A DNA stretch of 64,000 nt from an uncultured Actinomycetes bacterium (GCA_963790695.1 CAWBPX010000013.1:130121-194120); one strand, 5' to 3'; shown: positions 20,239 through 23,713, numbered from the stretch's first letter. A program made the numbers and translations. Notes: generated by a model from the letters alone, not told the origin.

Positions 20239-21010
20239 TGGCCGAGGTCGAGACCCAGCGCGACGGCGCGGTCCTCACGATCACGCTCAACCGCCCGGAC
20301 GTCCTGAACGCGTTCAACGCCGCGATGCACCAGGCGCTAGGCGCGGCGCTGCGAGGAGGCTGAAGACGCGTCGGTGCGCGCGGTCGTGCTCACCGGAGCC
20401 GGACGCGGCTTTTGCGTCGGCCAGGACCTGACCGAGTTCCGCGAGTCGCCCGGCGACATCGGCGACCGGTTGCGGAGCAACTACCACCCGAACGTGCTCG
20501 CGATCCGGCGGCTCGAGAAGCCGGTGATCGCGGCGGTCAACGGCGCCGCGGCCGGCGCGGGCCTCTCGTTCGCCTGCGCATGCGATCTGCGCATCGCGGC
20601 GGACTCGGCGAGCTTCGTCCCGGCCTTCATCAACATCGGGCTCGTCCCGGACTCGGGCGGCACGTACTTCATCGCCCATCTCCTCGGCTACCCGCGTGCG
20701 TTCGGGTGGATGACCTCCGGGCACAGGCTCACGGCGGCCGAGGCTCACGCGTGGGGGCTCGTCTCGGAGGTGGTCGAGGCAGATGCGCTTGCCGGCCGCG
20801 CCGCTGCGGTCGCCGCCGAGTACGCGGCGCGCCCGACGCGAGGCGTCGGAATGACGAAGCGCCTCTTCTCGCAGGCCTTCGAGAACACGCTGGAGGAGCA
20901 GCTCGAGGCCGAAGCGGAGCTCCAGACCGCCGCGACTCGAGACGAACGACTTCAAGGAGGGCGTGGCCGCCTTCCTCGAGAAGCGCGACCCGAAGTTCAC
21001 GGGCGCCTAG
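20238..21010 (+). pseudogene. paaG: PaaG-like 1,2-epoxyphenylacetyl-CoA isomerase / enoyl-CoA hydratase, two frameshifts
   Basis: ATG 20238 overlaps the preceding TGA. MAEVETQRDGAVLTITLNRPDVLNAFN. Then ORF 20374 (VVLTGAGRGFCVGQDL...). Then a third frame (FKEGVAAFLEKRDPKFTGA) to TAG 21008-21010. Shifts near 20350 and 20940. Confidence 0.75.
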
Positions 21011-22206: not shown

Positions 22207-22278
22207 ATCGCAGCGACTGCGATAATAGCAAAGACGCTATTGACGATGCTATCTCACGTCTGCTATGGATAGCAAAGA
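22206..22278. promoter_or_regulatory. XRE promoter/operator region
   Basis: AT-rich island. 8-3-8 palindrome TATCGCAG-cga-CTGCGATA (22206-22224) abuts the XRE start codon. Direct repeats ATAGCAAAGA at 22225-22234 and 22269-22278. TTGACG (22240-22245), N18, TATGGA (22264-22269) on the + strand. TATTAT on the - strand. Confidence 0.55.
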
Positions 22279-22391
22279 TGAGATACCGCAGCCCTCGGCT
22301 CGAACAGCATGTTCGGCGCAGCGCTCGATTGCGAGCCCCGTTCCTCATTGGCGACGCTGCTACGGCGCGTTGACGCGCATGCGGATCGTGC

Positions 22392-22580
22392 TTGTCTGCG
22401 CTGCCCGGACTCGCCATCGCAACCGTCTACTGGGTCGCCGTCGGCTGGAGCGGCGATGACTACGACATCGGCCGGACGGGTCTCGTCCTCTTGACGGCGT
22501 TCTTCGGCGTCGCGTTCGTTTCGCTCTGGGTCGTCGGATCGGTGGTCGGCCGGCTGTTCCGATTGGGACTCGAGCGGTGA
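22392..22580 (+). CDS. Small hypothetical membrane protein (62 aa)
   Basis: ORF with TTG start and two hydrophobic segments (LAIATVYWVAVGW, LVLLTAFFGVAFVSLWVVGSVVG). It may be the tail of a longer frameshifted gene starting near 22265. Confidence 0.4.
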   Translation: MSALPGLAIATVYWVAVGWSGDDYDIGRTGLVLLTAFFGVAFVSLWVVGSVVGRLFRLGLER

Positions 22581-23043
22581 GTCGCCTCAGATTCCTCGAC
22601 GATTGCCGTTCTGCTCGTCGTCGTGGGCGCACCGCGTATGAGGCCGCGGTCGCGCTCGAGTGGATCCAGTCGGGACCGAGCCCGGTGAAAGCGCCCGGTT
22701 CGAGGGCTTCGTGATGTCGTTGGCGTCATCGCGCTCGCTGCGGGCTTCGTCGCTCGCTCGCCCTTGCGGCGCGGAATCGCCGGAGCCGCCCGGGCAGCAC
22801 TGTTCGCGCCAGCTGCTGCCGCGCTGATGGTCGCACGCTACTACACGTTCGACACCTACTACCTGCCGACATGACTCGATACTCGGAGGGCGTGATCTCG
22901 TCGACCTGGGTCTACGGACTTGCGCTCGCCAGCGCTCTCGCCGCGCTCTCGAGTTCGCGATGCCCAGATTCGGCTTTGTGATCGCGGCGGTGGTGATCTT
23001 CGTCTGCCTCGTCACGACGATCGCCTTCGGCATCGGCAAGTAG
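22577..23043 (+). pseudogene. Degraded multi-TM membrane protein gene (at least three frame breaks)
   Basis: Hydrophobic coding-like pieces occur in all three + frames (IAVLLVVVGA; DVVGVIALAAGFVA...AALMVARYYTFDTYYLPT; STWVYGLALASALAAL; FAMPRFGFVIAAVVIFVCLVTTIAFGIGK then TAG 23041-23043). Confidence 0.3.
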
Positions 23044-23281
23044 CGTCGGCTTCGACTGAAGCTAGCCGAGTAGCGCGCAGAATCTCCGCGGCGTCCGGAA
23101 ATCGGCCCTGCTCCTGCTTCGAGAAGAGCACCTTCCCGTCGGCGAGCACGTCGTACTGGCCCTTCGACCCTTCCTCGATCGTGGCGTCGTGCCCCGCCTG
23201 GTTCAACTCGGCCGCGAGACTCGCAGCCCGCACGTCATACGACTCTCAGACGGGGCAGTACTGGATCAGAACCTTGGCCAC
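23012..23281 (-). CDS. SelW-like / Rdx-family redox protein with in-frame TGA (putative selenocysteine, CPVU motif)
   Basis: The ORF track starts at GTG 23233. Reading on upstream in frame gives GTG(23281) AKVLIQYCPV-TGA(23246-23248)-ESYD joined to VRAASLAAELNQAG...EGSKGQYDVLADGKVLFSKQEQGRFPDAAEIL. That is the Rdx/SelW pattern IEYCxx(C/U)...RAxWxxxEL...GxFEVxVDGxLxFSKxxxGRFPE. The C-terminal end may be shifted: a TAG at about 23056 lies in another frame. Confidence 0.65.
23210..23228 (-). other. SECIS-like hairpin downstream of the in-frame UGA
   Basis: mRNA GGCUGCGA-GUC-UCGCGGCC: 8 bp including one G-U pair, with a GUC apical loop. It starts 17 nt after the UGA. The apex GCGAGUCUCGC resembles the E. 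coli fdhF SECIS apex GCAGGUCUGC as I recall it. Confidence 0.5.
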
Positions 23282-23332
23282 GAGAGAAACCTACATTGAC
23301 GCGCGACGCCCGACGGCGGATCATCGGAGCCG

Positions 23333-23713
23333 GTGAGCAGTAGCGCCGAGATCGTCGCCTGGACGTGCTTCGTGGTCGGGATCGTCCTCCTGGTCGCGGG
23401 GGTCGTGATCGGGCTGGCTCTGACCTTCCGGAAGGCGACGAAGCAGGTCGAGCACAAGATGCGGCAGGTGCGGCACAAGGTCGACGAGCTCAAGGACACC
23501 GCTGTCAGCGGGTCGATGAGCGCACGGGCCGACGATCATGCCGCCGCGACTGCCGAGGCGAAGGCGGGCGAGGTGAAGAGCGCCCTCGACGAGGTCAGCG
23601 GGATCGTCGCCGCGCTCCCGGAGAACCTGCGCTTCGCGGGGCTCCTCATTCTCGTCGGAGCAGCCCTGATGAGCGTCGCGACCGTCCAGTTCGGCGGCCA
23701 CTCGATCTTCTAG
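23333..23713 (+). CDS. Hypothetical membrane protein (N- and C-terminal TM segments)
   Basis: Complete ORF with GTG start. TTGACG (23296-23301), N17, GATCAT (23319-23324) lie directly upstream. Confidence 0.55.
   Translation: MSSSAEIVAWTCFVVGIVLLVAGVVIGLALTFRKATKQVEHKMRQVRHKVDELKDTAVSGSMSARADDHAAATAEAKAGEVKSALDEVSGIVAALPENLRFAGLLILVGAALMSVATVQFGGHSIF

Follow-up and report, generated by a model that had tools for sequence, protein, structure and literature searches.

Where does the small minus-strand gene that ends at position 23062 begin, and what does the TGA codon standing in its reading frame encode? In the window (the whole 64-kb stretch of DNA that was analysed) mechanical ORF calling gives a minus-strand ORF at 23012..23233, which opens at GTG 23233-23231. 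The original prediction held that this ORF is the larger part of a hidden selenoprotein gene of the SelW/Rdx family, and that the called start removes the redox motif, including the TGA. On re-reading, the ORF and its start are as claimed, and the same frame read upstream gives exactly the proposed succession: GTG 23281-23279, AKVLIQYCPV, TGA 23248-23246, ESYD and then the called ORF.

Limits and family of the gene

The gene as we read it is made of the following elements.

23288..23293, minus strand: probable -10 hexamer TAGGTT (TANNNT type), 6 nt upstream of GTG 23281
23279..23281, minus strand: start codon GTG, the first possible start after a TAG and the one for which the -10 box is placed
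23249..23278, minus strand: codons 2-11, AKVLIQYCPV, skipped by gene callers; they match Pfam Rdx positions 1-14 and bring 14 bits
23257-23255, minus strand: TGC codon for the first Cys of the CxxU motif, within AKVLIQYCPV and next to beta-strand 1
23246..23248, minus strand: in-frame TGA, predicted selenocysteine codon, residue 12, the U of CPVU; TGA in 91/91 sequences
23231..23233, minus strand: GTG taken as the start by mechanical ORF calling, really the internal codon Val17
23062..23245, minus strand: rest of the Rdx coding sequence down to the ancestral stop TAG 23064-23062, with an extra base at 23079
23012..23061, minus strand: frameshift-derived tail ...ASVEADATCRCRRRSS with stop TGA 23014-23012, which has no counterpart in relatives

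Related loci were drawn from contig look-ups and the genome collection (11 loci) and from metagenomes (80 loci). One of the metagenome loci was left unscored, its contig ending inside the gene.

Upstream of GTG 23281 the frame contains TAG 23293-23291 and then GTT TCT CTC; there is no ATG, GTG or TTG in between and GTG 23281 is thus the first possible start, as had been proposed. The TAG that the original prediction read as a stop is itself part of the box TAGGTT. A TANNNT hexamer placed 6-8 nt before the start codon is the geometry of the actinobacterial -10 box in leaderless transcripts. Of the 63 unique upstream regions, 60 contain such a hexamer with its end at this distance from the start codon, for a chance expectation of about 0.4%, examples in the relatives being TAGGTT, TAGCGT, TAGGCT and TAAGCT. 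This placement provides independent support for GTG 23281, and not GTG 23233, as the start; for the latter we found no Shine-Dalgarno-like or promoter signal. The conserved position of the box argues in addition for a leaderless mRNA, transcription most likely starting at or beside GTG 23281. The start codon lies 10-11 codons before the UGA in the relatives, except in the proteobacterial loci L009 and L010. These two have no obvious start 10-11 codons upstream, and their initiation signals thus differ from those of the actinobacterial clade.

On the other side of the promoter region two further features are found.

23296-23324, plus strand: promoter-like TTGACG-17-GATCAT, ending 8 nt before the GTG of the gene below
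23333-23713, plus strand: predicted membrane protein of 126 aa without Pfam match, divergent from the Rdx gene

Because the promoter-like site ends 8 nt before its GTG, the 126-aa gene is probably leaderless too. The promoters of the two genes stand back to back in a 51-bp spacer (23282-23332), and the pairing, with a spacer of 50-54 bp, is kept in 15 of the 66 loci that have enough upstream sequence. A functional link between the two genes was considered and rejected: the pairing occurs in the closest clade only, i.e. it reflects lineage synteny and is no evidence of function. One MAG of 96% identity, MFD10043.bin.2.35, carries the locus twice on two contigs (CAVQIS010000006.1 and CAVQIS010000007.1, loci L004 and L005). 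The two Rdx genes are one residue apart and the 126-aa neighbours are identical, which corresponds either to a recent duplication or to assembly redundancy or strain mixing.

The protein belongs to the Rdx family. Against the Pfam Rdx profile PF10262 (cutoff 22.6 bits) the extended product, U being read as C, reaches 47.4 bits and covers positions 1-71 of 74. For the truncated product the match is restricted to positions 15-71 and amounts to 33.3 bits, also above the cutoff. The added N-terminus therefore fits the profile from its first position, which is what the original prediction implied. The score on TIGR02174 (CXXU_selWTH) is 35.3 bits, above the cutoff of 34.2, and that on NF041051 (SelTWH_Campy, a Campylobacter-type NCBIfam equivalog) is 58 bits, below the cutoff of 88; judged by this score the protein is a relative of the equivalog group that falls outside it.

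The segment IQYCPV(U) aligns with the I-x-YC-x-x-C of MIEN1 (2LJK, E = 5e-5) and of 2OBK, 2OKA and 2FA8, YCPV-UGA lining up with the YCTQC and YCEPC of the solved structures. Because of this alignment the UGA is placed at the second redox Cys position of CxxC, exactly where the original prediction had put it. C9 and position 12 are invariant in the alignment of the relatives (A1). Translation from 23233 yields a product devoid of both beta1 and the CxxC/U motif, and the claim that this start removes the redox motif is thus correct. A thioredoxin-like alpha/beta fold can be predicted, from homology to the solved Rdx proteins only, and a thiol/selenol oxidoreductase (redox) function is predicted as well.

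The 3' end is less simple. The product sequence first proposed was right as far as ...AAEIL, where it stopped; the ORF as written runs past this point for 21 more residues, LRATRLASVEADATCRCRRRSS, down to 23012, through an insertion at 23079. There, alignment with L004, L005, L006, L014 and L001 reveals that the window has one base too many, the minus-strand T of ATTC[T]GCGC, which shifts the frame 7 codons before TAG 23064-23062. Removal of this base gives ...EIRALLG* with TAG 23064-23062 as the stop and matches the C-terminus of the family: relatives end in ...E(V/I)RxLLG*, about 16 codons earlier than the ORF as written. Nucleotide homology to relatives of 96% identity ends exactly at 23062. 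By this comparison the conserved gene excludes the tail 23012..23061 and its true stop is TAG 23064-23062. The corrected product has 72 residues: MAKVLIQYCPVUESYDVRAASLAAELNQAGHDATIEEGSKGQYDVLADGKVLFSKQEQGRFPDAAEIRALLG. If the frameshift at 23079 is real, it alters the C-terminal helix.

This extra base is one of about ten single-base insertions that the window displays between 20234 and 26285 relative to all or most of four relatives (89-97% nucleotide identity), at 20352, 20939, 21994, 22215, 23079, 24093, 24286, 25061/25160, 25908 and 26171. They occur about once per 500-600 bp, outside homopolymers and inside coding regions, and they frameshift or fuse PaaA and PaaB, PaaC and PaaD, the HTH gene and the convergent downstream gene. 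The patchy ORF pattern of the window results from these insertions, for which sequence or assembly error appears the most economical reading.

Beyond the Rdx stop, a variable cassette (22233-23061 in the window, 389-1420 bp among relatives) lies between the Rdx and HTH genes; at the nucleotide level the window and its closest relatives part at 23062 and match again from 22232. In the window the cassette contains a convergent plus-strand gene, about 220 aa long, which indels have distributed over three frames; L015 and L017 possess a homologue of it, with approximately 62% identity across 97 aa.

The hairpin downstream of the TGA

The original prediction also described an 8-bp hairpin with a GUC loop starting 17 nt after the UGA. 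Re-reading of 23228-23210 confirmed it.

23210..23228, minus strand: SECIS-like hairpin GGCUGCGA-GUC-UCGCGGCC, loop at 23220-23218, within codons R18-A24

The hairpin GGCUGCGA-GUC-UCGCGGCC has a perfect 8-bp stem and a 3-nt loop, and begins 17 nt past the UGA. The bSECIS model specifies an apical loop of 3-9 nt and an upper stem of 4-16 bp (PMC13188914, Fig. 2), a G within the loop's first two positions and 16-37 nt between UGA and loop (PMC13188914), and a minimum free energy (MFE) of -7.5 kcal/mol or lower (PMC13188914). With its GUC loop, 8 bp, 25 nt of spacing and -12.5 kcal/mol, the hairpin agrees with the model on all four counts. No SECIS family was detected by an Rfam scan of the whole window at the gathering threshold, the sole match being a tRNA-Arg.

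The constraints of the model are permissive: 79% of the TGA triplets of the window pass those on loop size, loop content and spacing with a stem of at least 4 bp when the MFE is not applied. A bSECIS-compliant hairpin of at least 8 bp follows 3.7% of the 1139 TGA triplets of this 70%-GC window. The folding energy of 23190-23250 is not significant relative to dinucleotide shuffles (z = 0.71). Taken alone, the hairpin is not beyond chance in a window of 70% GC. Since neither the folding of the single sequence nor the TGA background singles it out, its significance comes from comparative data only.

We analyzed the codon usage of the hairpin in 72 unique actinobacterial sequences. The Ala codons that are fully internal to the stem (8, 11 and 12 in the numbering of this analysis) have a codon entropy of 0-0.19 bits, vs 1.1-1.65 bits for Ala codons in the rest of the gene. 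Ala codon 7, in the same numbering, has 0.84 bits: GCC and GCU, which both pair with the opposite G, are used, and GCA occurs once. The Ser of the hairpin, which supplies the U of the loop, is encoded by AGT in 69 of 71 sequences. Genomes of 70% GC use AGT rarely. The Leu of the hairpin is CTC in 72/72, while the next Leu is spread over four codons.

The pairing itself was examined in a register-preserving alignment of 54 distinct segments, proteobacterial versions included. Paired cells make up 98.1% of the alignment, and four of the eight pairs show double compensatory changes; none of 500 shuffles and no slid register approaches these values. The proteobacterial hairpins read GCCUCCG-GUC-UGGAGGC and CCCUC-CGUGU-GAGGG. 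In L009, L010 and L011 the hairpin stands in the same codon register, with stem sequences entirely different from that of the window. Within the actinobacterial clade one compensatory change is found, from G-C to A-U by two synonymous substitutions (L045 and L067). The independent compensatory events are nevertheless few, because three proteobacterial sequences and one actinobacterial pair account for most of the changes. With compensatory changes and frozen synonymous sites both present, the hairpin appears to be kept by selection at the RNA level.

The apex had been likened to that of the E. coli fdhF SECIS, which follows the UGA at codon 140. Both hairpins lie inside the ORF, just 3' of the UGA, and their apices, GCA-GGUC-UGC in E. 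coli fdhF and GCGA-GUC-UCGC in the window, share a loop with G-U then C and a closing A-U pair. Disparities nevertheless appear between them: the loop of the window hairpin has 3 nt instead of 4, its 8-bp stem is perfect with no bulged U, and the loop starts at nt 29 counted from the U of the UGA, vs nt 22 in E. coli fdhF. The features of the fdhF type (GGUC tetraloop with G23/U24, bulged U, loop about 18 nt past the UGA) are not found in the window hairpin. The likeness proposed for the apex is therefore real as regards the GUC-U apex and the A-U closing pair, and does not extend to loop size, bulge and spacing. Judged on its sequence, the hairpin fits the general bSECIS model, not the fdhF subtype.

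Decoding of the in-frame TGA

To the question of what the TGA encodes we answer that, with high confidence, the small Rdx-family redox-protein gene is real and its in-frame TGA is a selenocysteine codon. Three other readings have to be weighed against this one.

The machinery of selenocysteine incorporation was searched in 92 sequences, i.e. the window and the 91 fetched loci. Neither selA, selB, selD nor a tRNA-Sec gene was found in the 64-kb window or in the approximately 305 kb of fetched related DNA: a tblastn search of the window with SelA, SelB and SelD of E. coli gave nothing better than E = 0.2, and ARAGORN detected no tRNA-Sec in the window or in any of the fetched related DNA. As regards the window, this absence is uninformative. 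A SelB match at L066:940-1263, the sole one among the 92 sequences, was rejected as it really corresponds to a TypA/BipA-type GTPase. In L066 the gene of this translational GTPase lies about 500 bp downstream of the Rdx gene.

That no sel gene was found in the window and in the 305 kb or so of related DNA speaks for a recoding of the UGA to something other than selenocysteine, by near-cognate read-through with Trp or Cys or by a lineage-specific suppressor. The hairpin might then stimulate read-through in a generic way, or serve in mRNA stability or regulation. But the UGA occupies the catalytic CxxC/CxxU site, where selenocysteine is documented for the Rdx/SelW family, the hairpin matches bacterial SECIS elements in its loop G-U, spacing and size, and the neighbouring genes use TGA as a normal stop. 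We regard such a recoding as improbable, although it is the least improbable of the three. A global reassignment of UGA was also considered, and rejected on gene calls: TGA is the normal stop of 25 of the 51 rough gene calls of the window, and of 7 of the 20 genes called independently in the relatives, including PaaD.

Could the UGA simply be a genuine stop, GTG 23281 opening an 11-residue peptide and GTG 23233 a functional Rdx domain? This is the output of every gene caller, and the truncated product, at 33.3 bits, is still above the Pfam threshold. It would however be without beta1 and without the CxxC/U motif by which the family is defined. The -10 box fits the upstream start, not 23233, for which neither an SD-like nor a promoter signal was found. 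In addition, 91 loci conserve the peptide encoded in this frame by the 11 codons upstream of the UGA. Thus V-8, I-6, Y-4, C-3, P-2 and V-1 (numbered from the UGA) are 97-100% conserved, while the third positions of these codons vary (GTC/GTT/GTG, ATC/ATT, TAC/TAT, CCC/CCG). With the protein conserved and the changes synonymous, these 11 codons behave as coding sequence. We consider a genuine stop very improbable, still more so than recoding to another amino acid.

The agreement between gene callers extends to the databases. The close database proteins form 36 clusters (P0001-P0036) in a collection of 5.8 billion proteins. They measure 48-64 aa, mostly 56-57 aa, and cover just the C-terminal 58% of the query: 34 of the 36 start from the internal Val/Met codon that follows the UGA, and two entries of 48 aa start further in. 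The misannotation of these genes as fragments is systematic across sources. JGI nonetheless gives several of the 36 short clusters the name "predicted Rdx family selenoprotein".

The codon is TGA in all 91 sequences scored (the window and 90 related loci), and TGC or TGT in none; the relatives that carry it include MAGs labelled Gaiellaceae (66-68% identity) and proteobacterial MAGs (42-49% identity). A nonsense mutation, a sequencing error hiding a real TGC or TGT, or a pseudogene is effectively refuted by this comparison: about ten single-base insertions do occur in 6 kb of the window, one of them in the Rdx gene, but these errors are insertions, not substitutions, and the 91/91 TGA codons come from sequences assembled independently from many metagenomes and MAGs. 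The proteobacterial loci L009, L010 and L011 (42-49% identity) keep the TGA within motifs CGRU and CGAU.

The reading of the UGA as selenocysteine thus stands well ahead. The Pfam score, the alignment with the Cys residues of solved structures, the TGA present in every scored sequence, the hairpin and the -10 box all bear out the hidden SelW/Rdx selenoprotein of the original prediction. They support that the called start at 23233 is wrong and that the gene is a member of the SelW/Rdx family with a UGA encoding selenocysteine. The active-site end would have been cut off by automatic gene callers because the in-frame TGA encodes this residue.

Proposed mechanism and comparison with known systems

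On this reading, transcription from the TAGGTT box (23293-23288) would begin at GTG 23281 or beside it and give a leaderless mRNA. The ribosome would make MAKVLIQYCPV and meet the UGA at codon 12. The hairpin located 17 nt downstream would act, by analogy with known systems, as a bacterial SECIS and recruit SelB-GTP-Sec-tRNA(Sec), so that selenocysteine would be inserted at the UGA instead of termination taking place. Within a thioredoxin-like fold, strand beta1 would thereby end in a CPVU redox motif. Both the insertion of selenocysteine and the binding of SelB to the hairpin are inferred.

If the mRNA is leaderless, the distance from its 5' end is just 34 nt for the selenocysteine UGA and 54-72 nt for the SECIS hairpin. 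A soil actinobacterial clade would then make a selenoprotein from a leaderless mRNA, by SelB-dependent recoding on a 70S-initiated transcript, a dozen codons after initiation; we hold the arguments for and against this scenario to be evenly balanced. No treatment of leaderless bacterial selenoprotein mRNAs was found in the literature searched. The near-invariance of the SECIS across the clade suggests an unusually strict match between SelB and its RNA.

The value of these observations is mainly for annotation: the gene and its 36 close clusters are recorded as fragments of about 57 aa without CxxU. Because the entries lack the catalytic motif, proteomes and functional inferences for abundant soil actinobacteria would miss the selenoprotein. 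If selenocysteine is confirmed, soil actinobacterial lineages will be shown to use it, and the gene, with its compact conserved SECIS and its probably leaderless mRNA, would lend itself to studies of selenocysteine recoding in high-GC Gram-positive bacteria.

The solved Cys-form Rdx proteins (2OBK, 2OKA, 2FA8, 2OJL, 3DEX and 2P0G) and human MIEN1/C17orf37 (2LJK) can be aligned with the window protein end to end (E = 5e-5 to 0.03), and share with it the motifs G-x-F-E/D-V ... FSK ... G-FP. The Cys-form proteins measure about 100-117 aa and carry a Cys at the second redox position, in contrast to the window protein, in which this residue is predicted to be selenocysteine.

The bacterial SelW-like selenoproteins are close to the window protein as well. 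SelW-like CxxU proteins outnumbered every other selenoprotein family in the Sargasso Sea data (48 Sec vs 7 Cys forms; PMC1088965), and they are also on record from complete genomes, where they have few Cys homologues (PMC1794560); a 2022 review lists them under pfam10262 with the motif CxxU (PMC9312934). The window gene resembles this family by its size (about 70-100 aa), its N-terminal CxxU right after beta1, its UGA at the second redox position and a SECIS directly downstream within the ORF. The scarcity or absence of close Cys forms in the family (PMC1794560) is also found here, the 91 scored sequences being all TGA forms. Differences concern the hosts, i.e. soil-type high-GC actinobacterial MAGs labelled Actinomycetes or Gaiellaceae, whereas the original SelW-like sources were marine, deltaproteobacterial and clostridial. 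Specific to the window clade are the CPVU motif, the near-invariant SECIS and the apparently leaderless gene. In every feature tested the gene fits the established bacterial SelW-like family, and it represents neither a new mechanism nor a new family.
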